A DNA stretch of 64,000 bases from a virus. The stretch is from UHGV virus genome UHGV-1364187. One strand, given 5' to 3'. Positions 15,465-56,629 of the stretch are shown piece after piece. The notes under the pieces were generated by a model that did no database searches, was not told the origin of the DNA, and saw nothing but the letters and a program-made list of their open reading frames with translations. The translations under genes and the position numbers were made by a program. Position 1 is the first letter of the stretch, and each line of letters opens with the position of its first letter.

Positions 15465-15543
15465 ATAAATTCCTCCTTTAAGATTAGAAATTATATAATT
15501 GTTATAGATTGGATAAGTATCTATATAGATACTTATCCTTTTA

Positions 15544-17265
15544 CTATTTTTCTATATATGCTGGTACGAATGTTCCTGGGATAATTAAAGAATTTTCTTC
15601 TACCTTCCTCACATAATCTACAGTATTCTGTAGACAACATGCAGCTTCTTTCAGAATTTCAATTTCTTCATCATCACCTTGCCCAAGAACTTTCTTCTTA
15701 AATGTTGCACCTTCAACAAGCCCTACAGATTCTTTATATAGATTCATTAATTCACTAAATTTTTCTTCCCAAGAATTTGGTTCTTCAAAATCTTTAAAGA
15801 ATCCATCTTCTCTTAGATTAGAATATGGAGTAATATTTCCAGTTAATCCTGGATTAGAATCACTACTTGAACATGTATCAATATTACATAAGTTAGATAC
15901 ATCCATACGCCTTTGAATTTCAGATACATTAGAGCCAGTCTTTTCTCCAATACCAGATATACCTTTATAACTAAATTTAGTACAGAATATAGCATCATCT
16001 TCGTTAACACTATTTCGATAATTTACTAAACTACATTTTGTAATCTGTGATAATAGATAGTTTGGAGAAATATTGATAGCTTTTCTTATAGTAGAAATAG
16101 TTGCACGTTTACCACTTACTGAAATACGCTTAATACCATTAGATAATTTTATAGCATATAAAGATGCTAGATATTCATCTAATCTTACTCTCTTTAATGA
16201 TGAATCTTGGTTATCTTTCATCATAAGATCAGAGAAGTTTCTAATCATCCATAGTAATACTTTATAAATATCATCTTTATACTCTAAAGGTAATTTAATA
16301 GCAGCTTTTGTAGATGGATCGTAAATACCTTCTAGAGATTCTAACAGTTTAACACCTTTTTCATGACTGTATTTAGTGAGAGTTACATCATTATCCAAAC
16401 GATCTATCCAGTAATCTATAGTAAACAGATCTTCATATACTACATCTTTGTTAATCACTTTTAAGATTGTATATATAAGAGATTGTGTTACATAATCACT
16501 ATCGAATATCATTTTTGGAACTTGAATATAAATCTCATGTTTTTCAAATATATACATATTAGAATTATCATCTGGTTTGTCTTTTAATACCTTTATGCAA
16601 CCAATACCAGATTGCATAAAAGTACCCATCAAACCAAACTTAGCTAATAGATATTTGAATACTATAATATTCCTATTGAATATATTAGATGAATATAATA
16701 CAATAGGAAGTTCTTCACCATCAATAGTAGTCAATTTATTATGGAATCTAAATATCTTAATAGGCATAAATATAGTCTTTTGTGTTGTTGAAGCACATTT
16801 GGCATTAGTATTAGCATTATTATATGTGCTACCATCTACTATCTGAAACATTGGTAAATAGTAATTTCCTTGTAATTCAAAGTAATATTTATCTGTATAT
16901 CTTGGTAAATTAATAAGTACATCCAAATCTTCATACTTATCTCTAATACCAATTGTATAGTGCACAATCATAAGTCTAGTCTTAGAATTTCTAATTGGAA
17001 TATAATCATAGATATTTTCAATAGGTTTAGATATCCTATCAATCCTATCTTGTTCATATTTTCTCATAGTATTATAGATTTCTATTGGACTATCGATGAC
17101 TTCAAATGAATTTACTTTAATAGTGAAATATTTATCACGTTGACAAGTGAGAATTACATTCTGTAATTCTCTTACTATATTATCATCATTTCTTTGAAAT
17201 AGTTGCGGATTGAATCTTTCCCTTTCATCAAATGAGTAATTGTATAAAAGTTCAGGAATGTTCAT
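15544..17265 (-). CDS. multisubunit RNA polymerase beta subunit, N-terminal/middle fragment
   Basis: C-terminal part RRMDVSNLCNIDTCSSSDSNPGLTGNITPYSNLREDGF aligns with bacterial RpoB [40 protein letters not shown]. The ORF ends near the E. coli approximately-580 equivalent. Confidence 0.65.
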   Translation of the reverse strand: MNIPELLYNYSFDERERFNPQLFQRNDDNIVRELQNVILTCQRDKYFTIKVNSFEVIDSPIEIYNTMRKYEQDRIDRISKPIENIYDYIPIRNSKTRLMIVHYTIGIRDKYEDLDVLINLPRYTDKYYFELQGNYYLPMFQIVDGSTYNNANTNAKCASTTQKTIFMPIKIFRFHNKLTTIDGEELPIVLYSSNIFNRNIIVFKYLLAKFGLMGTFMQSGIGCIKVLKDKPDDNSNMYIFEKHEIYIQVPKMIFDSDYVTQSLIYTILKVINKDVVYEDLFTIDYWIDRLDNDVTLTKYSHEKGVKLLESLEGIYDPSTKAAIKLPLEYKDDIYKVLLWMIRNFSDLMMKDNQDSSLKRVRLDEYLASLYAIKLSNGIKRISVSGKRATISTIRKAINISPNYLLSQITKCSLVNYRNSVNEDDAIFCTKFSYKGISGIGEKTGSNVSEIQRRMDVSNLCNIDTCSSSDSNPGLTGNITPYSNLREDGFFKDFEEPNSWEEKFSELMNLYKESVGLVEGATFKKKVLGQGDDEEIEILKEAACCLQNTVDYVRKVEENSLIIPGTFVPAYIEK

Positions 17266-18563: not shown

Positions 18564-18723
18564 AATAAATTCCTCCTATTTATAAAAGATTATATTTTTT
18601 TAAGTAATATTCATTACTTATACACCTTAATAATATATAATTGAAATTTATATTACTCTGGTATTTTTTCTAATTACAATATAGTTTACTTGCAGTTAAA
18701 GTTTTAATATAAAGAATAGTATA

Positions 18724-21042: not shown

Positions 21043-21539
21043 TAGATATCAATCCTTTCTAGTGTAGAAAAATACATACTATAATGTTTATCCTGTGTTA
21101 CATGATAAGTTTCGTCTGTTATAACCCACTTATCTCTAGTTAATCTATCTGCTGGAAAGTAAGTATCGCCATCAAAGAATTCATCAAATTTTGTTACGAA
21201 AATTCTCTTAGTATAATCTAAGAATTCTCTATATACCCATCCTCCTCCAATAATAAAAATATCATCATCAGGATTTTCACAATCTAATAACAATATATCA
21301 TTTACAGAATGAACAACTTCTACACCAGGAATCTTTATATCTTTATGACTTAATACTATATTTCTTCTATCTGGCAATGGTCTACCAATACTTTCATAAG
21401 TCTTTCTTCCCATCACTACAGTATGACCTGTAGTGATGTCTTTAAAATGTTTTCTATCTTCTCTAACTATTCCCCAAGGTAATTCATTATCTCTACCTAT
21501 TATCATATTTCTAGATATAGCAACAATCATATTAATCAT
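21042..21539 (-). CDS. folA: dihydrofolate reductase
   Basis: MINMIVAIS-x-N-x-IG-x-DN-x-LPW...VVMGRKTYESIGRPLP-x-R-x-NIVLS is the classic DHFR fingerprint. The start was trimmed to the Met behind GGAGAG. Confidence 0.8.
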   Translation of the reverse strand: MINMIVAISRNMIIGRDNELPWGIVREDRKHFKDITTGHTVVMGRKTYESIGRPLPDRRNIVLSHKDIKIPGVEVVHSVNDILLLDCENPDDDIFIIGGGWVYREFLDYTKRIFVTKFDEFFDGDTYFPADRLTRDKWVITDETYHVTQDKHYSMYFSTLERIDI

Positions 21540-21993
21540 TATAATCTCTCCAATCTTTAACAATATATCCAGGAATAAATGTAGCTGGAATATTATTTGG
21601 TTTTATTTCTGCTGGTACAAGACAATTATTATATAATGCTCTTTCTTGCTCCAACATTATTTGAGCTGGAGTGTACATTCCTTCCTTATTAGGAGCTATA
21701 TTATTTGTATCTATAGCTGGAACAAAATATGCTGGTCTTATTCTCTGAACTAATGTCTTCTTAAATACCATTCTTAAGCCTATAGCTTTAAGATAAGTAT
21801 GCATAATTTGTGCAGTTATATTATTAGTTTCATTATCTATTTGTACATCCACGTTATATGGATCATCAGTAAGAATATTCTTAGCTAATCTTCTACCATG
21901 TGTACTAGCACTATTGATAAGTAGCATTACTAATAATAACTCAGCATCTACGTGCATTAAATTTGAAGCTTCCATAGACCCACCACTACACAA
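21532..21993 (-). CDS. RNA polymerase beta subunit C-terminal fragment, exon 2 (after the intron)
   Basis: GGSMEASNLMHVDAELLLVMLLINSASTHGRR aligns with RpoB [31 protein letters not shown]. The true exon start is about 21,985-21,993. Confidence 0.6.
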   Translation of the reverse strand: MCSGGSMEASNLMHVDAELLLVMLLINSASTHGRRLAKNILTDDPYNVDVQIDNETNNITAQIMHTYLKAIGLRMVFKKTLVQRIRPAYFVPAIDTNNIAPNKEGMYTPAQIMLEQERALYNNCLVPAEIKPNNIPATFIPGYIVKDWRDYND

Positions 21994-22470
21994 ATTGTGT
22001 AGCAGACTATATCACCACCATATACTTTAAAAAAGTACTTAGGTGCCTCCCATTTCGGATATACTATATCCTACTCTACTCACTTCGTCTATATCTAATT
22101 TATTAGATATACCTTATTTTTAACTAGATTACTAGTATATTAGCTTTCGATAGTCGTTGAACTTTAATCTTTGAATATAGTTTTATATTTATATATTATA
22201 TTTGATATTATTCAAAGATTCTTAGCTGCTGATTGTAGATCTGTTACGTTAACTTAGCACCTATTATTGAATAGGCTTTTATCTCAGCATATCAACACAG
22301 AATCAATTTTTTCTGTCTTTCGACGACATTCACACCCATCCTTACGGATCATGTTGTAGTTTGATTCTGAATAACTACTTCCCAGACAAATTAAAGAGGT
22401 TTTTACTTCTATCTTTTTCAAGATAAAAGGCACATGTATGTCTATGCAACTGGTGTACGACTGTATGGTG
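21990..22470 (-). ncRNA. group I self-splicing intron without an ORF, in the RNAP beta gene (boundaries approximate)
   Basis: Minus-strand R element gttcaacgacta (22151-22162), Q aatcagcagc (22226-22236), S gatatagtctgc (22002-22013), P-like aatttgtctggg (22381-22392) and P9 hairpin ctacacaaattgtgtag. The G+C content is higher than in the flanks. The RpoB homology resumes immediately after. Confidence 0.7.
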
Positions 22471-24220
22471 ACTCGTATAATTTACTTGCACGAGATCTTG
22501 TATTTTGCCCTCTTACATTAGTTGCTGATAAAGATGTTGTTGAGAATTTCTCTTCTGCAACTTGTTTTAATCTGTAATAATATATATGACCAGCAATAAG
22601 TTTTCTTCTAGTAGGTATGGCTCTATAATTACCCATAGAATCTTTTTGTTGAATCATAACTGTATAAGGTTCGATCCAATCAAAATGTTTATACATTTGA
22701 TCTAATAAATCTATACCATATGATTCTGTTATAGGTTCTATTTGGAAATGAATACAATCATAAGACTTGATACTGTCTAAGAATAATTTCTTATCTTGTT
22801 CTGACATATTGTCTACTATATTTTTTGTATATCTGTACATATTAGGACTTACAAAAGATAAGAAATCAAAGTACATTTGAAACGCTTCTTCATCTGTGCA
22901 TAATGGAGATCTCATTCTTTCTATAATTCTAGAACTTATAAAATTAGATTCCATTTCAATATGTTGTCCAGGATTAAGACGTCCTACTATACCTGCAGAA
23001 TTCCATATTGCGTCTGCATGTTTTCCATTGTCAAATAAAGGCATTAATTCTTCTGGTAAGAATCCAGCAATAACACCTTTACCTCCATATCTATTAGTAA
23101 TCTTATCACCAATTTGTATACGACTAACTTCATATACCATGAAATCAATTACTAAGAAAGAGAATTCATTATCTTTTTCATTCAAGAAATGTTGTCCGTC
23201 TAATATTCTCTTATGAAATAGATATAACTCTTCTAAGTCATATGATTTTTTAATACTTTTATCATTTACAATTGGTTCTAATACATTAACTATTTCTCTA
23301 GAGAATCTTTGTTGATTCATATAAATCATAGCTAATTGAGAGTATTTAGAATCTGTAAATAGTAATTCTGGATCGTTACAATATATATCACAATCTATTA
23401 GTACACCTGACCCTATTGTAACTTTAACATCAGAAGTCATTATTTTTCTTAATCTATCTTGGCTTGCAGAATAAAATTGTTCTTCATTTTTCTTTAGACG
23501 AGTACCCATAAGAATACCATCTTTTACCTCTTCTCCTACAAAAGGACATACTTTATAACTACCATCTTTACCATAAAGATTCAATGGAACGTTATTAGTA
23601 TTTATACTTATACGTTTTGGTTTGAATACTGGAGTATCAAATTTTGGACGAACAGCTTCGCTTAGAATAATACCATCTTCGCAAGTCTTAGCTATATTCA
23701 TAAATACTCCATTAAGATTTATACCATCCATCTTATTACCATAATCATCATAAGATGAGCTTTTTCTTATTACATCACCTTGTTTAATTACATCACCAAC
23801 TTTTTTACTATCCATATATTTATTATTATACTTATATCCATTTGTTTCTGTAAGATAATTATAATCTACTCTATGATATATAGTATAAGAATTATTAGTT
23901 GGATTGCGTAATATAAGAATATAATCATGTTCTGGTAAATGTTCAAATTTTGATATCTTAGCAACTATCTCATATTCCATATCAGCTAACAATACAGCAC
24001 TATTATATCTACCATATTCATTAGCATATCCAGTATCACAGAATGCGATTTCTGAATTAATAAGATCTGTTCTATGATCATTATGAACATTATACATCTT
24101 CTTTCTTGATGCTGCATTATGATTATTGAACGGTTCTTTCAATCCTTTAGACAATACGTAATCTAATTTCTTTGGAACGTATTGATCTATTCTTGTTAGT
24201 GGATCTGTTATTATTGCCAT
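22442..24220 (-). CDS. RNA polymerase beta subunit C-terminal fragment, exon 1
   Basis: GINLNGVFMNIAKTCEDGIILSE matches the RpoB GxN..VAFMPW.GYNFEDAI block. GDKITNRYGGKGVIAGF matches GDKxxGRHGNKGV, and NPGQHIEME is also present. The last roughly 20 codons before the stop at 22442 are intron-encoded. Confidence 0.7.
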   Translation of the reverse strand: MAIITDPLTRIDQYVPKKLDYVLSKGLKEPFNNHNAASRKKMYNVHNDHRTDLINSEIAFCDTGYANEYGRYNSAVLLADMEYEIVAKISKFEHLPEHDYILILRNPTNNSYTIYHRVDYNYLTETNGYKYNNKYMDSKKVGDVIKQGDVIRKSSSYDDYGNKMDGINLNGVFMNIAKTCEDGIILSEAVRPKFDTPVFKPKRISINTNNVPLNLYGKDGSYKVCPFVGEEVKDGILMGTRLKKNEEQFYSASQDRLRKIMTSDVKVTIGSGVLIDCDIYCNDPELLFTDSKYSQLAMIYMNQQRFSREIVNVLEPIVNDKSIKKSYDLEELYLFHKRILDGQHFLNEKDNEFSFLVIDFMVYEVSRIQIGDKITNRYGGKGVIAGFLPEELMPLFDNGKHADAIWNSAGIVGRLNPGQHIEMESNFISSRIIERMRSPLCTDEEAFQMYFDFLSFVSPNMYRYTKNIVDNMSEQDKKLFLDSIKSYDCIHFQIEPITESYGIDLLDQMYKHFDWIEPYTVMIQQKDSMGNYRAIPTRRKLIAGHIYYYRLKQVAEEKFSTTSLSATNVRGQNTRSRASKLYESPYSRTPVA

Positions 24221-24301
24221 GTTTCTTCTCCTCCTTGAATGTTTAATATATGATAGATATAAGAAAAAGTTCATTATATCTATCATATATATAATATATA
24301 A

Positions 24302-24763
24302 TTATGCGACGTTTTGGATCATAGATAATATGTCATCTGTAGATGATGTTAACCCTACTTCATCTTCTTCTGGTTCTTCATAAGTATCAGATAGCATAGA
24401 TTTCATCTCTTCTAAGACAATTGTATTAAATACTGATCTAAACTCTGAGTCTGTATTAAGTTTATTCTTAAATTGTTTTTGAGAGAATTTCATATCACTT
24501 CTATCACCTAGGTACAAATATGCACCTGCACCATTAAGAACTCCACGTTGTTTTAAGAACATAAACATTGATAAATCTGCATCAAATCCATCACTTTGAC
24601 TAAATACTAATGGAACAGATTGACCAGCTTTATTTGTTCTTGATTTAACAAGTGTTACCTCTGTAATGTTTCCGTCTAAGTCGAATACTTCTCCTTCTTT
24701 TAACTTAGATCCATCATCAAATCTAATAATATTATTTGCTAAGTATATAGGTGTATTGCCGCC
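24302..24763 (-). CDS. RecA/UvsX-like recombinase, exon 2
   Basis: GGNTPIYLANNIIRF matches RecA GGNALKFYASVRLDIRR and UvsX GGGTGPMYSADTVF. Confidence 0.6.
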   Translation of the reverse strand, partial: GGNTPIYLANNIIRFDDGSKLKEGEVFDLDGNITEVTLVKSRTNKAGQSVPLVFSQSDGFDADLSMFMFLKQRGVLNGAGAYLYLGDRSDMKFSQKQFKNKLNTDSEFRSVFNTIVLEEMKSMLSDTYEEPEEDEVGLTSSTDDILSMIQNVA

Positions 24764-24766
24764 CAT

Positions 24767-25150
24767 AATTTTATATTACATACGATCGCTACTCGTATTC
24801 TATAATTTTCATTATAGATTAGACTATATCTTCATCCTTATTATTAAGGAGCACTCCATTTCGAATACGCTTGTATTCTACTCTATTTCTAGATAGTCGT
24901 TGAACGTTCTTCTCATATAAGAAGCTTCGCTGCTGATTGTCCATTACAAATAAGACTTAGGATTTTGTCCATATCTCATACTAACCGCTTTTTTCTACTT
25001 TCGTAACCATCACGCTTATCTTTACAGATTACGTTGTGGTGGGTTAGTCTTTAGGAGTTCCCAGCAATTAAGAGTGTTTCCTAAATGCTCATTACTGAAC
25101 ATTCTCCCCAGTTATGCAATACGTTTAGGGAGTGATTCGTCAACCTTCAA
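24767..25150 (-). ncRNA. group I self-splicing intron without an ORF, in the recA-like gene (boundaries approximate)
   Basis: R gttcaacgacta (24894-24905), Q aatcagcagc (24929-24939), S gatatagtct (24821-24830), P aattgctggg (25060-25069) and P9 hairpin with a GAAA loop (24800-24817). It is homologous in sequence to the intron at 21,990-22,470. Confidence 0.7.
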
Positions 25151-25909
25151 ATATGATACTTGTGCTTTCTTACGTTGAGCAGGTGTAATAGCAACTGCTT
25201 GTGTAATATGATTGATTACAAATAAGATAATATTAGCAGCTTTTAATAATGGAATAATAGTTCTAAAGATCTTAGCATTAGCTTTAGCTGTTGCTGTTGT
25301 ACTCATCTGTCCTGACATTTCTTCTTCGTCAGAAAATTTCTCAGGCATTAATAATGCTAATGAATCTAAAATAACTACTGTAGGCTGTAATTTGTATAGC
25401 CTATTACCAAATTCATCATATAAACCAGTATCATATTCAAACTCACTTCTATTAGCAAGTTTGATATCACTAATCATCTTGATTCTTTGGAAGAAGTTTT
25501 CACATGTGATACCAGTATTTCTATGAATATATTTATCTTTAGCCTCTTCAGGTGTCATTTTAGCAAGTTTAAATAGTCTACTATTACTAATACCACCCTC
25601 AATATCTTCATGATATATAGCAGCATTAGGAAATGGTTTAACAATATTTCCAGCTGCTTGAATAGTCCATGTAGTTTTACCACATCCAGATCTACCAATA
25701 ATCATTACCATTGATCCATCTGCAATTCCAATAGAATAATATTGATATTGCTGACCGTCTGGAGTTTTTCCAATAGCTACAGTACCATTTCTAAAATCAA
25801 ATGTAAGAAATCCAGTTGAATATCCAACAGGTGTTTCTGTTTCAACTTTCATTCTATAATCTTTAGATTTTTCTACAGATTTTCTAAACATATCTACCAA
25901 TAAGCTCAT
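25112..25909 (-). CDS. RecA/UvsX-like recombinase, exon 1
   Basis: Walker A GRSGCGKTT, Walker B VVILDSLALL and INHITQA (RecA INQIR, UvsX INHT). The C-terminal approximately 15 codons are intron-derived and the stop lies inside the intron. Confidence 0.7.
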   Translation of the reverse strand: MSLLVDMFRKSVEKSKDYRMKVETETPVGYSTGFLTFDFRNGTVAIGKTPDGQQYQYYSIGIADGSMVMIIGRSGCGKTTWTIQAAGNIVKPFPNAAIYHEDIEGGISNSRLFKLAKMTPEEAKDKYIHRNTGITCENFFQRIKMISDIKLANRSEFEYDTGLYDEFGNRLYKLQPTVVILDSLALLMPEKFSDEEEMSGQMSTTATAKANAKIFRTIIPLLKAANIILFVINHITQAVAITPAQRKKAQVSYLKVDESLPKRIA

Positions 25910-25964
25910 AAAAAATAAACCCCTTTCTTTATTTAAGTTATTTATAAGTTATATATAATGTAAA

Positions 25965-26005
25965 AAATAAAACGTAGGCTACCATTTAGGCAACTCTACG
26001 TTTTA
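25965..26005 (-). terminator. terminator-like hairpin
   Basis: aaaacgtag...ctacgtttt stem, followed on the minus strand by attttttac. Confidence 0.45.
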
Positions 26006-26009
26006 TTTT

Positions 26010-26936
26010 TTAAGGCATAATAATATTCTCGAATGTTTGTAAGTTGTGAACAACTTCTAATATTCTAGGATAATCTGGACATGCAGAAATATCAAATCTT
26101 ACTCTATCGAAATTACTATTAAGCTTATAATCTTGTGAATATACTATTAATACTTTTCTAATATTATCTGATGTCATACTATCTAATAGATCTAATATAG
26201 CAAGATTGATTGTTGAATTAATGAAACTTGCATCAGGACCAAATGCAGCAAGTTCATTCTCTGTATAAATATCATACATAACTCCAATAAACAAAGGAGT
26301 CATATGAGAATATAACTCTTGATAGATATTTACTATCATTTGTTCTGTCATTAATTCTCTAGACTGTTGTATAAGTTTATTAGTAAGTCTTTTTGTACAT
26401 ATTACATCATCACTATTTGAATATCTACAAATAGCAATATCTGTTGCAATATGATCTGGTAAACCAATACCTATAAGTTTACTAATAATTGTTCTGTTAA
26501 TTGTTCTAGCAATAGTCATAAGTGCATTCATTGTATATTGATCTTTGTCTTCTAATACTGCATAATCATAAACTAATTTGTTCAAATAACAGATATTTGA
26601 ATGATCAATATACTGTTCTTGAGATAATACTTGATTGAGCACCATTAAGAATTTACTATTCATAAATAAACTAATATATCTACAATCATTGTAACTCATT
26701 ATAGAATATAAGATATCTGAATAGTACATCTTAATTTGTTTAAATAACTCTTCATCAGATATTGTATCAAAATCAATAGTCAACATATCTTCTGGTGTTG
26801 TTAAATTCACGTTTACATACACAGTTTTCTTCGCCTCCTCTTCAGCTTTTTTAACAGAAGCCTCAAAGAATTTATTAAAATTTGGTTTTTGTGGCTTCTT
26901 TAATTCTAAGTTCTCATAAACTTGAAAATCTTCCAT
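26010..26936 (-). CDS. hypothetical protein
   Basis: 308-aa ORF. Confidence 0.5.
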   Translation of the reverse strand: MEDFQVYENLELKKPQKPNFNKFFEASVKKAEEEAKKTVYVNVNLTTPEDMLTIDFDTISDEELFKQIKMYYSDILYSIMSYNDCRYISLFMNSKFLMVLNQVLSQEQYIDHSNICYLNKLVYDYAVLEDKDQYTMNALMTIARTINRTIISKLIGIGLPDHIATDIAICRYSNSDDVICTKRLTNKLIQQSRELMTEQMIVNIYQELYSHMTPLFIGVMYDIYTENELAAFGPDASFINSTINLAILDLLDSMTSDNIRKVLIVYSQDYKLNSNFDRVRFDISACPDYPRILEVVHNLQTFENIIMP

Positions 26937-27000
26937 ATATAAAATCTCCTTTCTAAATATTTATATTCAATAATATAATATATGATTAAAATTTAGTTTA

Positions 27001-27041
27001 ATATAAAAAAATAAAAGAGCATACTTACATGTATGCTCTTT
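27001..27041 (-). terminator. rho-independent terminator
   Basis: 11-bp stem aaagagcatac/gtatgctcttt, followed on the minus strand by tatttttttatat. Confidence 0.7.
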
Positions 27042-27050
27042 ATTAAAATT

Positions 27051-28238
27051 CTATAGTTCTTTTCCAGTTGAAGTATTAACTAGGATTGATTTTGGACTTG
27101 ATTGTTCATTGTTAATTGTTTGAGTTTTATTTGGTTCACTTGATTTCTTTTTATTCTTAAAGAAACCAGGTTTAGTTGTTCTTACATTAAACTCATCTTC
27201 TTCAATTTCCATTTTGTTAATATCACTATAGAATGAATCTTGAGTTTTATTAACTCTACTTGCAACTTCTTGATATTTTGTATAAATATCTTGAAGTTCT
27301 TTTACTGGTAATTTTAATCCAGCGATAATAATAATAGCATATTGATCTTCGCCATCTAATACTGGTTGAATATGATCGTATGCTTCATATGGTTCTCCAA
27401 CAACATCTTTAATTGCTCTATAAGAGTAATCAATGATATTCTTTGTTTCTTCATTGATATTCCATACAACACCAATACGTTTGCATGATGGTTGTTCAAT
27501 ATCAATTGATTTTGTATTTTGGATAGCTTTAACTAATAAGTCATCTAACTGTTCTTGAGTTTTAATATCTCTTCCGATAGATACTTTTTCAATTAAACTA
27601 TATCCAGGATTGTTGATAAGTTTAAAGTGGTCTGTATCATCAATATTTTGACTTCCTTCTCTTAATACTGAACCAGTAATAACTTTAAGCTCTTCTACGA
27701 ATAATTCATTAGCCATCTTTTCAGCTGCAACTTTATTACCTTTAGCATCTGATAAGAATTTTGCATTACTAATAGTATGAACTACGTATTGTGGTAAGAA
27801 TTGTTTAAATAGATTAACTGTATTTCCTAATCCTCTTGCATCTGCATGGAATCCCATTAATGGGAATTGATGTACTGTGATGCCTGTATTTTCTGTAATG
27901 TAGTTTCCTAATACAGGAGCACCACCACATCCAGTTCCACCTTCAGCACCAAATACAATTACAACTGCATCGTCATCTTCTTCTAAGAATTCTGGTAATA
28001 ATTCTTCTAATTCTCCACCATTAAGAGATTGCTCCATCATATCAGCACCAAGTTTTGTTTCTTTACCTGCACCATTAATGTCTCCAATGATGATTGAAAT
28101 ATCTCTATACTCTACTGGGATGTCTTTGTCAGTGCTATTGATAAGTTTAACATATTCTCTAGATATTGCACCTTTTTCAATTGCATCAATACTTGCTTTG
28201 TTTCCTGCTGCACCAACACCGAATAATTTTGTTTTCAT
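27051..28238 (-). CDS. tubulin/FtsZ-family GTPase (phage PhuZ/TubZ-like)
   Basis: Glycine-rich N-terminal loop GVGAAGNKA (FtsZ GVGGGGNNA). Tubulin signature GGGTG(S/T)G within GAEGGTGCGG. Long charged C-terminal tail. Confidence 0.7.
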   Translation of the reverse strand: MKTKLFGVGAAGNKASIDAIEKGAISREYVKLINSTDKDIPVEYRDISIIIGDINGAGKETKLGADMMEQSLNGGELEELLPEFLEEDDDAVVIVFGAEGGTGCGGAPVLGNYITENTGITVHQFPLMGFHADARGLGNTVNLFKQFLPQYVVHTISNAKFLSDAKGNKVAAEKMANELFVEELKVITGSVLREGSQNIDDTDHFKLINNPGYSLIEKVSIGRDIKTQEQLDDLLVKAIQNTKSIDIEQPSCKRIGVVWNINEETKNIIDYSYRAIKDVVGEPYEAYDHIQPVLDGEDQYAIIIIAGLKLPVKELQDIYTKYQEVASRVNKTQDSFYSDINKMEIEEDEFNVRTTKPGFFKNKKKSSEPNKTQTINNEQSSPKSILVNTSTGKEL

Positions 28239-28381
28239 AATAAAAATCCCTCCTAAAATATTATATATTATATAATCATGTGTTATAATATATTTTGAAA
28301 TTTAACACATGATAAGATTAGATAATAGATTAAGCTCTATTATCTAATCTTCATTCACTATTATAATATATAATTATAATT

Positions 28382-28594
28382 TTATTTGTTTACAATTTTT
28401 GACATATAATCTAGGTTTTCTTTATACTGAATTATTTCTTCGTTAAGATAATCATTTTGAATTTGTAAATCTATAATTGTTTGATTTTGTTCTTTTATCT
28501 TTTTATTAAGTTGAGTTATGTATCCTATTTCTAAAATTATTGTGAATACTATTAACCCAATTAATATGTAAGATTTTATAGATAATTTATACAT
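28382..28594 (-). CDS. small membrane protein
   Basis: One hydrophobic helix followed by a coiled-coil-like tail. Confidence 0.45.
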   Translation of the reverse strand: MYKLSIKSYILIGLIVFTIILEIGYITQLNKKIKEQNQTIIDLQIQNDYLNEEIIQYKENLDYMSKIVNK

Positions 28595-28596
28595 AT

Positions 28597-28719
28597 CTAT
28601 TTATTCTGTTTTTGATTATCTTTAACTTTTTTAGCATCTTCTTCACTAACTTCAGTAATACCTAAACCTAAATCACCTTGTTCTTGTATCATTACTAATT
28701 GTTCATCATTATTTCCCAT
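28597..28719 (-). CDS. small acidic protein of 40 aa (not in the ORF track)
   Basis: ATG 8 nt after GAGAGGAGAG. Its stop abuts the next ATG. Confidence 0.4.
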   Translation of the reverse strand: MGNNDEQLVMIQEQGDLGLGITEVSEEDAKKVKDNQKQNK

Positions 28720-28812
28720 ATATTAATCTCTCCTCTCTTATCTATCTTTTAAGGGTTCCTAGTCAACGCCTTTAAAAGCCCCTTAGTTTTTTGTTAGAAG
28801 TTTAATAAAAAC

Positions 28813-29544
28813 TTACATAGTTTTTATTTGCTTTACTTTAGAATTTTTCATTGTAAATGGCAACATGTAATCTTCATTAATAAGATTTGAATATAAATGT
28901 GAAGCTATCATATATGCATTTACAGTATTTTTTGCAATACTATCTTCTTCATCTATATCTAAATCTTCCAATCTTACCATACCTGTAGTTCTAATATCAT
29001 TATACATTTGTCCTTTAGCTACCATAGCATCAGCTTTAGGTTTATAAAATTCTGTAGCTACTTTATCAAGACCCATAACCACTAATGCATTTAATTCATT
29101 ATCAGAAGTTAAACTTCCTTTATCTTCATGTGTTAATCTACCAGTTTTACCATCACGTTTATCTATATTAGTTGGGTTACTGTTCTTCTTAGATAGAATT
29201 TGTTTCATTCTTTTTAGATGAAAATATACAACTGGAGCTGGTCTTGTTTCTAATGGATATCCATCTTTAGTATACACTGATGGATTGTATATAGTTTCAC
29301 ATATAGGAACTCCCATTACATCTAATGCATTTTTTATATCTCCATATGTAGGCTCAACTACAAATGGTTTATGATGAAATCTAAAACATAATGGTCTATT
29401 GATAAAAATTTCAAATTCTTTATCTGACATTTTTGAGAATAATTTCTTATAGTATTCTAAATTTGTATTACTTCTATCTAGTTTAGACATTACATCATAT
29501 ACTAGTCTTTCTATTTTATTTCTTACTTCTTTACTAATTGCCAT
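28813..29544 (-). CDS. hypothetical protein
   Basis: 243-aa ORF. Confidence 0.5.
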   Translation of the reverse strand: MAISKEVRNKIERLVYDVMSKLDRSNTNLEYYKKLFSKMSDKEFEIFINRPLCFRFHHKPFVVEPTYGDIKNALDVMGVPICETIYNPSVYTKDGYPLETRPAPVVYFHLKRMKQILSKKNSNPTNIDKRDGKTGRLTHEDKGSLTSDNELNALVVMGLDKVATEFYKPKADAMVAKGQMYNDIRTTGMVRLEDLDIDEEDSIAKNTVNAYMIASHLYSNLINEDYMLPFTMKNSKVKQIKTM

Positions 29545-29554
29545 AATATCTCTC

Positions 29555-30715
29555 CTATCTACTACAATTATGAGTATACAGTATAAAATATGACAGTATA
29601 GCTCTATTGTATGAATTTTTTGTTGCTATTCTCGATTTTCTCTTATTATATGCTGGACTGTTCTCTGATAAGAATATTTCTAATATCTCTTTTTGTCTAG
29701 CGATATTAGGATTCTTCGAGTTTGGTTTAGCAGTATTAGAGAATGATACGAATCTAATATCAGAAGCTCTACCATTTGGATATGTATCTAAGTATTCTGT
29801 CAAAAGAATACCAATTAACTCTTCTATCATTGGTAGATTTTGTTTATTATCTAATATAGATTCCATAATACTCTTTATTTCATCTGTTTTTACATCACTA
29901 TTGGATACATATTTACATAATCTATAATCTACGTTTTTAGTAGTCATATTTGATATAACTTTTTGTGATGTTTGATTAATTTGTAAAGTTTTACTATCTG
30001 CTCTATGAAAATTATCTTCATCATCAGAGTCTGTATCATATGTGATATATTCTCTCTTTTCAAAAGCATCATAATACATAGAGGCAACATTTTTAAGCAT
30101 AGCTTTTATTCTATCACGTAATTGCAGTATAATATATGCAACATCTTCATCTGAAAATTCTTTAATTTCATCTTTATAAGTAGATAACCATGTTTCTGTT
30201 AAACTATTAACAGCTTTGATTACACTGCCTTCTTTCTTTATATCGAATTTAGATGATAGTTTATTATTTACTACATATTCCATAATATACCTATATTGTG
30301 TTGGAGCAATTGGGAAACAAACATAATGCATGGATGGATAAAATTTACCACTAAATGATAAATATACACATGCTAAATCTAAGTCTTTTCCATGCTTAGT
30401 ATCATAGAGAAGTTTCACTAAACATATTACACATACTGTGAATTCATCTTTAGCAGCCATAGCTCTAAATTTAGCATCTTCCCAATAATATGTGTGTGAT
30501 AACATTTCTCTTACTTTATTGATATCGATATCGAATGTATTAAAGAAATCATCACGATCTTCTGCCATAAATGATATTCTATCACATGGACATGTATCAT
30601 ATAACATAGTAGATCGTTTATTCATAAATCTAGACATAATCTGTTTAAATTTTGTTGGATCATATTTAGATTTTATATATGGATATATTTCATTTTTGAT
30701 AGCGTAAGTATCCAT
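29555..30715 (-). CDS. hypothetical protein
   Basis: 386-aa ORF. Confidence 0.5.
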   Translation of the reverse strand: MDTYAIKNEIYPYIKSKYDPTKFKQIMSRFMNKRSTMLYDTCPCDRISFMAEDRDDFFNTFDIDINKVREMLSHTYYWEDAKFRAMAAKDEFTVCVICLVKLLYDTKHGKDLDLACVYLSFSGKFYPSMHYVCFPIAPTQYRYIMEYVVNNKLSSKFDIKKEGSVIKAVNSLTETWLSTYKDEIKEFSDEDVAYIILQLRDRIKAMLKNVASMYYDAFEKREYITYDTDSDDEDNFHRADSKTLQINQTSQKVISNMTTKNVDYRLCKYVSNSDVKTDEIKSIMESILDNKQNLPMIEELIGILLTEYLDTYPNGRASDIRFVSFSNTAKPNSKNPNIARQKEILEIFLSENSPAYNKRKSRIATKNSYNRAILSYFILYTHNCSR

Positions 30716-31485: not shown

Positions 31486-31574
31486 CTCCTTATTTATTAT
31501 TAGGTTATATTCTAAAAAATTAAACAGATTTTAACACATATATAATTTTAAGACATCAAAAGGAGACTTATATT

Positions 31575-33441: not shown

Positions 33442-33483
33442 TAAGAGAATAGTCATTCATAAAAATGAATGACTAATCTCTTA
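33442..33483 (+). terminator. terminator hairpin
   Basis: 18-bp stem with one mismatch, taagagaatagtcattca/tgaatgactaatctctta. Confidence 0.5.
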
Positions 33484-33535
33484 TTCAATTATATATTATA
33501 TATATGAATATAATATTAAAGGAGAGTGTTTTATT

Positions 33536-34814: not shown

Positions 34815-34972
34815 GATTTAAAACAACTGCAAACTATACAGTAATTATAGTTTGCAGTTAATAAAAAAGTGATAGTAAACAAAATTTCAATTATATATTA
34901 TTAACGTGTAAACAAGTAGTTAATCAACTACATTGTATAAAAATAATTTAAAATTTCAAGGAGGAATTAATT

Positions 34973-35803
34973 ATGTACAACAATTATAATGGTAGTTACA
35001 ATGGACAAGGAAATATGGGTATGGGATACAATGGACAATATCAAGGTCCAGTTATGACAAATGCAGTATCTCAAGAAGAAATTAAAGAACTTAGAAAAGC
35101 AGGTTCAACATCTGCTATTCCACAAGTAACAAGAGCAGAAATGTTAGCTGCAAAATGTACACATAGAGATCCACAAAAGAATTGCTTTGCAACAGTTCCA
35201 GCTAATGAAGAAGGTTATGTAGTATGTACTATTTGTGGTGCAAAATTTAGACCAGTAGAAATGACAGAACAACAAGCAACAGAAGTCGTTAATGAAACAA
35301 TCGATATTGCTCAAACAGCTAAAATGAATTTCATTGACATGAGTCCAACAGCAGTTGTTGAATATTTCCAAATGATTCCACTTCTTAGCAGATTACCAAA
35401 ATTATATGCACAAAGTTTAAACAACTTTAACAAATATGACAATGGTATGCAATATCAACAAAATGGAAATAACAACTTCTTCAATATGTTCTCAGCATTA
35501 ACATCTCCTGGTATGGGCATGGGTTATGGACAACAACCTATGTATCAACAACCAATGTACGGACAACAAATGGGAGGTCAACCAATGTATGGTCAACAAC
35601 CTATGTATCAACAACCAATGTGTGGACAACAAGCTCCACAACAAAACTACTTCTATCAACAACAACCTAATCCATTACAAGCAGCAACAACTGTAATGCA
35701 ACAACAAGGTCAGGTTGCACCAAATCAACCTGTACCACCTCAACAAAATGCTCCAGCACCACAAGCTGGAAAACCAGAAGTTAAAAATGTAATTAATGCC
35801 TAG
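34973..35803 (+). CDS. protein with an N-terminal Cys-rich segment and a C-terminal Gln/Pro/Met/Tyr-rich low-complexity repeat domain
   Basis: CTHRD...C...CTICG near the N-terminus. The C-terminal 100 aa are built from QPMYQQPMYGQQ repeats. Confidence 0.6.
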   Translation: MYNNYNGSYNGQGNMGMGYNGQYQGPVMTNAVSQEEIKELRKAGSTSAIPQVTRAEMLAAKCTHRDPQKNCFATVPANEEGYVVCTICGAKFRPVEMTEQQATEVVNETIDIAQTAKMNFIDMSPTAVVEYFQMIPLLSRLPKLYAQSLNNFNKYDNGMQYQQNGNNNFFNMFSALTSPGMGMGYGQQPMYQQPMYGQQMGGQPMYGQQPMYQQPMCGQQAPQQNYFYQQQPNPLQAATTVMQQQGQVAPNQPVPPQQNAPAPQAGKPEVKNVINA

Positions 35804-41771: not shown

Positions 41772-41774
41772 AAA

Positions 41775-41820
41775 TTATATACGTCTACAATTTTTACACC
41801 GTAGACGTATATAATTTAAC
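41775..41820 (+). terminator. terminator hairpin
   Basis: 14-bp stem ttatatacgtctac/gtagacgtatataa. Confidence 0.5.
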
Positions 41821-53522: not shown

Positions 53523-54170
53523 AATGACTACAATTAATAGTGATGATTTAGATTTTATCAAAGGAATGACAGTATCAAATATTTTCGATGGAGTAACTGA
53601 GCCTTTTACTTCTGTAACTATCAAAGATGATTTATATACTAAACTTTTTACAATTCAAACTCATAATAATGACCATAATGATATTGATCCTTGAGAACAA
53701 TTATTTGTTGTAGATTTTATCAATTATAGATACAAAGCAAATGGGTATGAATTAAATAAAATACCATATACTGGTATTGAAGATTTTAAGATAATTATAA
53801 ATATTAATACAAATCCAAATAATTTCCATTGTACTTATGCTTGTACAAATAAAAAAAACCATTTATTGATATTATAGCTTTAAGAACAGATGATAATAAA
53901 GTAGATTTCTATGGACTTAATAGAGTAAATGGTACTAGATTATTAAGTAGATTAAGTATTGGAAATATTTCATGTATTGATTTTTATAGAGTAGACTATA
54001 TAAAAGAACATGAATGGACTGATACGATAACAAGTGAAAAGAAAAATGATAAAGAAAGATATATTAAATGCTACTATCCTAACGTCGCTTATATGAGCGG
54101 TATTACAAATAAGATAACAGCTTTAGAAAATAGGGTAAAAGAACTAGAAGAAAAATTAACAGTTTCATAA
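53523..54170 (+). pseudogene. disrupted gene of about 216 aa (in-frame TGA at 53692-53694, frameshift at the A8 tract 53851-53858)
   Basis: Coding-like sequence with an RBS and ATG at 53523. Inserting one A at the A8 tract restores a continuous frame to the TAA at 54168. Confidence 0.45.
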
Positions 54171-54201
54171 GAAAATAAATAATACGAAGGAGTTGTTTAT
54201 A

Positions 54202-56552: not shown

Positions 56553-56629
56553 TAAATATACAAGTATCTATATAGGTACTTGTATATTTAAAACATCTAA
56601 TTAAATATCATAAAAAGGAGGAGACTTAT

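Follow-up and report, generated by a model that had tools for sequence, protein, structure and literature searches.

What kind of tubulin-type protein does the virus genome UHGV-1364187 encode, and what do the two perfect hairpins in front of its gene do? Both questions arise from a stretch of 64,000 nucleotides of this genome (the window, numbered from its first letter), which lies on a 256,505 bp contig. A sequence-only reading of the window had described the gene product as a PhuZ/TubZ-like GTPase and had suggested a nucleus-forming jumbo phage. Our analysis points to a different explanation, which we consider the best one and, taken as a whole, fairly probable. The gene would encode a filament-forming GTPase of a distinct clade, not a PhuZ; it would be expressed as a one-gene unit from an early and a late promoter; and the first of the two hairpins (hairpin 1) would act as a 5′ stabiliser.

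The open reading frame (ORF) was confirmed as proposed. It runs from 27051 to 28238 on the minus strand and encodes 395 amino acids (aa) from an ATG start, with a ribosome-binding site (RBS), AGGAGG, readable at 28249-28254 on the same strand, 10 nucleotides (nt) 5′ of the ATG. The T1, T4 and T7 loops that mark the tubulin/FtsZ superfamily are all found in the protein. The N-terminal glycine loop that had been called FtsZ-like is present as GVGAAGNK and is conserved. The tubulin signature that had been quoted, GGGTGCG, does not occur in the protein; the actual sequence is FGAEGGTGCGGAPV, and the T4 loop reads EGGTGCG. The PROSITE tubulin pattern is [SAG]-G-G-T-G-[SA]-G, from which this loop differs at two positions. 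EGGTGCG is nevertheless what the family as a whole has as its consensus (SxEGGTGCGAxPI in 69 sequences). Across the same 69 sequences, G9, A11, G12 and K14 of the T1 loop and G100, G101 and G103 of the T4 loop were invariant. In the T7 loop, Q197-N198-I199-D200-D-T202-D203 (NIDDTD), D200 and D203 were invariant and N198 nearly so, and a single-sequence search of PDB chains aligned NIDDTD to the T7 loop NVDFAD of FtsZ.

Sequence searches placed the protein among the tubulin-type GTPases. The Pfam Tubulin model PF00091 matched the window protein with E = 8.9e-5, which is under the gathering score, and matched 68 of the 69 family members. The significant matches in the single-sequence search of PDB chains were to FtsZ only, the best at 1.1e-8. 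A profile built from the 69 homologues, run against PDB sequences, reached FtsZ at 1e-15, with archaeal and Thermotoga FtsZ on top, then Haloferax CetZ at 2.4e-12 and the TubZ of Clostridium phage c-st at 7e-10. The last of these aligned over residues 24-366 and was the sole PDB profile match to span nearly the whole protein, including its C-terminal part. Eukaryotic tubulin and Bacillus TubZ were unmatched by the profile (for Bacillus TubZ, nothing at E ≤ 1), and its match to the PhuZ/TubZ protein of phiKZ, PHIKZ039, was not significant (E = 0.28).

The modelled structure gave the same picture. The AlphaFold 2 (AF2) model of the protein had a predicted local distance difference test (pLDDT) score of 88 and a predicted template modelling (pTM) score of 0.81. 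It showed the two-domain fold expected of the superfamily, with a GTPase domain, the core helix H7 and a C-terminal activation domain, and a further helix (residues 312-328) after the last strand. Foldseek returned 1031 PDB matches at E ≤ 0.001; the top 50 were all FtsZ, CetZ or TubZ, and PhuZ was missing from them. The ranking was led by CetZ1 (4b46, 6.9e-21), followed by CetZ2 (4.8e-19), Bacillus cereus TubZ and many FtsZ chains. The best superposition was that on c-st TubZ, with a template modelling score (TM; here TMt) of 0.82-0.84 and a root-mean-square deviation of 3.1-3.4 Å. Among predicted viral structures, the best match was a protein of an uncultured 'Myoviridae sp.' that carries the automatic name 'Cell division protein' (37% identity, TM 0.85); viral PhuZ models had 11-17% identity and a TM of ~0.55. 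Profile searches, modelled fold and the T1, T4 and T7 residues thus all agree with the earlier claim of a tubulin/FtsZ-superfamily GTPase. Judged by its sequence and its model, the 395-aa protein belongs to this superfamily with its catalytic loop intact, and it is neither FtsZ proper nor PhuZ. Its nearest relatives are FtsZ and CetZ by sequence, and CetZ and phage c-st TubZ by fold.

FtsZ gave the best sequence matches and shares with the window protein the T1 loop, a GGTGxG T4 loop followed by APV, a T7 loop of the form NxDxxD, and a long C-terminal tail that is disordered and contains short linear motifs. However, identity to FtsZ is ~19-22%, the score against the FtsZ equivalog TIGR00065 was 28.2 bits against a cut-off of 295.2, and the FtsZ_C domain PF12327 was found in none of the 69 family members. 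The window gene is phage-encoded and lies outside any division gene cluster. The tail motifs of its product (TKPGFFKNKKK; F-[FL]) are not the conserved C-terminal peptide by which FtsZ binds FtsA, ZipA or SepF, and the model contains an extra helix after the last strand; FtsZ is not known to have a helix at this place, whereas CetZ, TubZ and tubulin do. CetZ, the top fold match and the second group reached by the profile, is an archaeal cellular protein involved in cell shape, to which identity is 18-22%. The resemblance to CetZ may reflect shared ancestral features rather than membership. PHROGs contained no family for the 395-aa protein.

The AF2 model has a folded part, residues 1-345, and a disordered tail, residues 348-395, in which short motifs are conserved. 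D-x-F-F was found in the tails of 52 of the 69 sequences, an acidic-F-[DNS]-hydrophobic motif in 56 and a terminal [DE][YF] in 26, and F-[FL] occurs in part of the family. The tail of the window protein holds the acidic stretch EEDEF as well as TKPGFFKNKKK. These motifs probably bind the neighbouring subunit or partners.

The family to which the protein belongs was delimited by an exhaustive profile search, which gave 178 representatives at 50% identity (E ≤ 1e-30). Clustered at 90% identity, its members in a large protein database form over 200 groups, mostly ~360-425 aa long and many on contigs of 220-280 kb. The loci came from IMG/VR (80), Joint Genome Institute metagenomes (15) and bins of metagenome-assembled genomes (MAGs; 9). 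The named samples were pig or other gut metagenomes, and the phages, uncultivated jumbo phages of ~220-280 kb related to Bacillus phage AR9, come from gut and oral samples. Isolate genomes yielded no relative, with binned relatives confined to MAG bins, and among 50,697 deposited phage genomes there was no match to the protein by tblastn, even at E = 10, and none to 20 kb of the sequence by megablast. The gene order around the tubulin gene was compared at 102 loci with 33-100% protein identity. A 243-aa fragment of the RNA polymerase (RNAP) beta subunit lay upstream in 88 of them; downstream, the recombinase gene UvsX was found in 90 and the larger beta subunit of the non-virion RNAP (nvRNAP) in 81. 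Between the tubulin gene and UvsX, 27 loci had a detectable gene of ~300 aa that evolves fast. The family is a distinct, uncharacterised viral clade that is syntenically fixed in a module of replication, recombination and transcription. We found no publication describing this tubulin family; a circular jumbo-phage contig without a nucleus protein was noted in one study to encode an FtsZ homologue (PMC7452251).

The phage itself is AR9-like in its RNAP subunits, its synteny and both of its promoter types. The best cultured matches of its RNAP beta were in Staphylococcus jumbo phages, Listeria LPJP1 and Bacillus PBS1/AR9, at ~30% identity. A 573-aa protein without a Pfam match (15544-17265, minus strand) matched the AR9 nvRNAP beta chain 7s00_c at E = 4e-40 and is, by this similarity, a further RNAP fragment of the phage. 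The order UvsX, nvRNAP beta, NAD ligase is common to AR9, which has no tubulin gene at this place. The earlier description of a jumbo phage with a split multisubunit RNAP holds. A tubulin-superfamily protein and multisubunit RNAPs correlate among jumbo phages (PMC7824862). A Firmicute host, also proposed before, is plausible: the cultured RNAP-beta relatives infect Staphylococcus, Listeria and Bacillus, and relatives were co-binned with Bacillota MAGs.

The phage nucleus that had been proposed together with these features is unsupported, because the phage is AR9-like in promoters, polymerase and gene order and AR9 is not known to form a nucleus. AR9 is not a member of Chimalliviridae, the family that encodes chimallin (2026 review, PMC13282480). 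No chimallin was found among 40 window proteins (PHROGs) or by PDB searches with two of the large unannotated ones; this negative is weak, since chimallins diverge fast and the 64-kb window covers a quarter of the genome.

What, then, might the protein do? From its sequence and model, it would be expected to polymerise with GTP into a filament that is cytomotive or serves as a scaffold while the phage infects. It would be produced from the earliest phase onwards, and the cellular role of such a filament may be to position or organise phage DNA or replication sites. The protein could instead be a TubZ-type segregation motor that keeps the phage genome extrachromosomal in a pseudolysogenic or carrier state, as in Clostridium phage c-st. 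The earlier label 'TubZ-like' holds at the level of fold: c-st TubZ gave the best superposition and the near-full-length profile match, and it is likewise phage-encoded in a low-GC Firmicute setting. TubZ binds its adaptor through an element of the kind seen here, a long tail that is disordered and carries short motifs, and PBS1/AR9-type phages are known for pseudolysogeny. However, the label does not extend to the rest of the type III partition system (TubZRC) around the gene. A small DNA-binding protein of the TubR kind is not evident among the adjacent genes (70-aa, 40-aa and 308-aa), and 25900-29600 contains no repeat array that could be tubC, the direct repeats there being two-copy and mostly intragenic. 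Identity to c-st TubZ is 15%, and Bacillus TubZ is beyond the reach of the family profile. Moreover, the gene stands in a lytic replication and transcription context with early and late promoters, not in a partition cassette, and MAG bins, not isolate genomes, are where its relatives were found. We regard a segregation motor as unlikely and favour a filament that serves the infection itself. A PhuZ-type spindle centring a chimallin-bounded nucleus is extremely improbable, and with it the label 'PhuZ-like' falls: the window protein does share with PhuZ the setting of a jumbo phage with multisubunit RNAPs and an acidic motif in its C-terminal tail (EEDEF, and the acidic-F-[DNS]-hydrophobic motif of the family, which recall the acidic tail of PhuZ), but it has no significant sequence match to PhuZ, its structural match is poor compared with those to FtsZ, CetZ and TubZ, and its AR9-like phage shows no chimallin candidate in the window.

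The expression of the gene can be predicted from motifs described in AR9, where the consensus is AAATATATATTAT-(6N)-G+1 for early and AACA-(6N)-TA/G for late promoters (Lavysh et al. 2017, PMC5312081). A predicted AR9-type early promoter, of the class used by the virion RNAP, lies on the minus strand at 28363-28375 (unit 28356-28375) and reads AATTATATATTAT-AATAGT-G, with G 28356 as the predicted +1. The motif AATTATATATTAT-N6-G matches the AR9 consensus at 12 of 13 positions and sits immediately behind the point where the upstream 70-aa reading frame stops; three annotated promoters in the AR9 record have the same early layout. The core ATATATTAT-N6-G occurs at six sites in the window, all of them intergenic, in sense toward the next gene and 30-118 nt from its start; intergenic DNA makes up 8.5% of the window. 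A predicted AR9-type late promoter, of the nvRNAP class, follows on the same strand at 28273-28284 (AACA-CATGAT-TA, AACACATGATTA), with A 28273 as the predicted start, 35 nt before the ATG. It is identical to the AR9 late consensus, and its AACA falls within the 3′ arm of the second hairpin (hairpin 2). The late motif is 3.2-fold denser in intergenic than in coding DNA of the window (4.2 vs 1.3 per kb), and 18 of its 23 intergenic sites point at a gene start 4-129 nt downstream. Three close relatives of the locus (L002, L004 and L007) have a late motif at the matching position.

At the other end of the gene, 9 nt after its stop codon, an intrinsic-terminator-like hairpin (27006-27041, minus strand; given as 27014-27041 in the promoter analysis) combines an 11-bp stem with 4 G-C pairs and the T-rich tail TATTTTTTTA. 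A terminator scan called this hairpin and left hairpin 1 uncalled. The next early promoter after it, with a predicted start at 26968, serves the 308-aa gene. From this arrangement of signals, the tubulin gene is predicted to be a one-gene unit with an early and a late promoter, a 118-nt leader, a strong RBS and a terminator. Transcription from the early promoter would start at 28356 and yield a 118-nt leader that opens with two abutting stem-loops, and the late promoter, which overlaps the second stem-loop, would provide a second start at 28273. AR9 genes with an early and a late promoter are expressed throughout infection (PMC5312081), and the two-promoter layout would likewise have the tubulin-type gene expressed continuously. 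The placement of both motifs before one gene is the same as in AR9; in contrast, the three early AR9 leaders that were inspected have no strong initial hairpin. The 5′ hairpin may be a feature of this phage clade.

Both hairpins described by the sequence-only reading are present and perfect. Hairpin 1 (28314-28351, minus strand; arms 28336-28351 and 28314-28329; repeat I25) has a stem of 16 bp, two more than the 14 claimed, and the loop GCTTAA. Hairpin 2 (28275-28313, minus strand; arms 28303-28313 and 28275-28285) has the 11-bp stem that was claimed and a 17-nt loop, and abuts hairpin 1 without a spacer. Their assignment to the tubulin leader is supported by the predicted promoter and start site at 28356, which place the beginning of hairpin 1 at +6 of the early transcript. 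The 118-nt leader folds at -30.8 kcal/mol, compared with -15.5 ± 3.0 for 200 dinucleotide-preserving shuffles (z = -5.1), none of which was as stable. Rfam contained no family for the leader, and its generic microRNA-type hairpin matches were all sub-threshold.

Conservation was examined in the close relatives, nine distinct loci with 50-78% protein identity (L002, L004, L006, L007, L105, L106, L110 and duplicate contigs). All nine have the early motif with N6-G upstream of the tubulin gene, and eight have a clear 5′-proximal hairpin at +1 to +6, which is weak only in the ninth. The 5′ stem measures ~12 bp in L002 (leader z -5.4), ~18 bp in L004 (z -7.0), ~17 bp in L007 (z -6.0), ~10-12 bp in L006 (z -1.8), ~20 bp in L105 and ~14 bp in L106, and is weak in L110. 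The stem sequences are unrelated across loci, except in L106, where one compensatory change from an A-T to a G-C pair is seen relative to the window. Of the nine loci, four (the window, L002, L004 and L007) have a hairpin 2, with differing sequence and always together with the late motif; the leaders of the other five have neither. A hairpin at +1 to +6 also follows four of the six early promoters found in the window, and the two promoters that lack one have leaders of 30-32 nt. The double hairpin is specific to the clade. As a feature of the whole family it was rejected, since loci with 33-43% protein identity have other upstream arrangements.

A stable stem a few nt from the 5′ end of an mRNA blocks RNases that depend on this end, namely RNase J1 or Y in Firmicutes and RNase E in Gram-negatives. 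Stabilisers of this kind are the 5′-terminal stem-loops of the E. coli ompA leader and of the B. subtilis SP82 and ermC leaders. The window leader is like them in having a stable stem within ~5 nt of the 5′ end, a long leader and an RBS clear of the stem; it is different in that its hairpin may also act on the 3′ ends of upstream transcripts. By analogy with these leaders, hairpin 1 is most likely a 5′ mRNA stabiliser of the early transcript. Lying 5 nt from the predicted 5′ end, it would shield early mRNA from 5′-end-dependent decay. In addition, it may stop or 3′-protect transcripts that arrive from the upstream genes.

Several observations weigh against this explanation. Both start sites are motif predictions, taken from AR9 with only ~30% RNAP-beta identity. 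Two of the hairpins that follow other early promoters of the window are weak (z = -0.8 at 18623), hairpin 2 is confined to under half of the close loci, and the family members with 33-43% identity differ upstream, often having a hairpin and a T-run right before the RBS. Hairpin 1 also lies 30 nt after the upstream stop codon, with no other terminator before the tubulin gene. It could therefore be, alone or together with hairpin 2, mainly a terminator or 3′-end protector for the RNAP-beta fragment and the 40-aa and 70-aa genes, its position in the leader being a side effect of a tight intergenic region. Some 20 intergenic hairpins of the window sit 0-22 nt after stop codons, and the order of stop codon, promoter and hairpin recurs at 24246-24299, between UvsX and RNAP beta. 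Hairpin 1 does not have the make-up of a canonical terminator: 4 of its 16 pairs are G-C, and its tail, AUCAUGUGUU, contains no U-run. The hairpins of L007, L105 and L006 likewise have no T-run after them, whereas TTTT follows hairpin 1 in L002 and L004. We rejected the missing T-run as proof against a terminator, however, because about half of the post-stop hairpins of the window are also without a clear T-tail (15511-15538, 34825-34859, 41772-41817 and 56553-56590 are examples).

Other evidence speaks against termination as the main function. Where space allows, terminators of the window precede the promoter (26937-27050, 33442-33535 and 34815-34972), and an efficient terminator 40 nt after +1 would abort the tubulin gene's own early transcripts. 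Furthermore, L006 keeps its hairpin at +1 despite a divergent upstream gene, so that a terminator role cannot explain that hairpin. We consider a mainly terminating hairpin possible but doubtful, and 5′ stabilisation the better explanation. That the two hairpins are instead RNase III processing sites, which would uncouple the tubulin mRNA from the upstream genes as RNase III does in T7 and SP82 early RNAs, is very unlikely: the 16-bp and 11-bp stems abut and could stack into a helix of ~27 bp, they lie between two gene units, and their structure is conserved where their sequence is not, but most relatives have a single stem of 12-20 bp (weaker in L006 and L110), there is no T7-type internal loop, and the position of the hairpin follows the predicted +1 (+1 to +6) and not the end of the upstream gene.

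Some further promoter and hairpin arrangements were observed in the window. A second early core, ATATATTATAA, lies at 28283-28293 on the minus strand, in the loop and 3′ arm of hairpin 2, and has T instead of G at +1. The virion polymerase of AR9 reportedly does not tolerate departures from its promoter sequence (PMC5312081), and on both grounds this core is probably non-functional. Hairpin 2 of L007 contains a similar TTATATTATAA. At 34893-34940 on the plus strand, the gene at 34973-35803 has an early promoter (predicted +1 at 34908) followed by a small hairpin that overlaps the late motif AACA-AGTAGT-TA, with a predicted start at 34922; the window thus contains two early leaders in which a hairpin and a late promoter overlap. 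At 24246-24299 on the minus strand, between UvsX exon 2 and the RNAP beta gene, the stop codon is followed by an early promoter (core 24287-24299, predicted +1 at 24284) and an 11-bp stem at +1 (z = -3.1). This layout would put the true beginning of the polymerase gene near 24220, behind AAGGAGGAG, instead of at the listed ATG at 24286, and the contig's own 592-aa gene call agrees with a start near 24220.

Directly downstream of the tubulin gene, on the minus strand at 26010-26936 and behind its own predicted early promoter, lies the gene of a 308-aa, all-helical protein whose AF2 model has a pLDDT of 87. This neighbour is conserved beside the tubulin gene in at least 27 loci, and the protein is a candidate partner of the tubulin-type protein. 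It matched nothing in Pfam, PHROGs or NCBIfam, and no PDB fold below E = 0.19. A weak PDB match to SigI6 (E = 0.0097) had raised an adaptor or sigma-like factor as a candidate, which the fold search did not bear out. Upstream, the 70-aa gene (28382-28594, minus strand) encodes a protein whose layout of N-terminal membrane segment plus coiled coil recurs in L002, L004 and L007. Beyond it lies the gene of a 40-aa acidic protein with the motif EQGDLGLG (28597-28719, minus strand), which could be detected close to the tubulin gene at 18 loci, some of them distant.

Elsewhere in the window, the UvsX gene is split by a group I intron, which occupies the gap at 24800-25136 on the minus strand between the ORFs 25112-25909 and 24302-24766 (Rfam RF00028, E = 6e-21, 80.4 bits where the gathering score is 50). 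Rfam scans of the whole window and of 8.5 kb did not pick up this intron, which emerged only from a search restricted to 500 nt. UvsX is intact in L002 and L007 (415-416 aa) and interrupted in L004. A structured, ORF-free segment of 290 nt at 21994-22283 on the minus strand (-57 kcal/mol) has TTCAACGACTATC and GATATAGTC in common with the UvsX intron; both look like the R and S elements in the core of such introns. It had no Rfam match at E ≤ 1, and may be a divergent or degenerate intron that splits a gene into 21532-21993 and 22284-22433. On the plus strand, 498 nt without a called ORF (53695-54192), just before a gene with N-terminal tail-spike similarity, could represent a frameshifted or interrupted gene. 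Finally, the coding strand switches at ~31486-31574, with minus-strand genes to the left and plus-strand genes to the right; GC skew and AT skew both change sign there, and a late-promoter motif points to the right. This site may be a replication origin or simply a module boundary.

Phage tubulins have so far been described by two models, the PhuZ spindle of the phage nucleus and the TubZ motor of plasmid and prophage partition, and the protein studied here fits neither. The promoters of its gene are of AR9 type, and so already known in kind; the protein is a new variant within the superfamily. The architecture of promoters and hairpins yields predictions of where transcription starts and how stable the RNA is in phages that are so far beyond culture. 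Should the protein form filaments, jumbo phages outside the nucleus-forming lineage would also organise the infected cell by a cytoskeleton of their own, and the family would supply a further branch, lying between FtsZ, CetZ and TubZ, that helps to reconstruct the history of this superfamily. A wider proposal, which we put forward tentatively and judge rather unlikely, is that AR9-like Firmicute jumbo phages of the gut and mouth, apparently without a chimallin nucleus, carry an FtsZ/CetZ-like cytoskeleton, made from the onset of infection and evolutionarily independent of PhuZ, which would organise replication sites or engage the host division machinery (FtsA or SepF) through KPGFFKNKKK-like motifs. 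If this is true, phages would have invented a cytoskeleton twice, in separate events.

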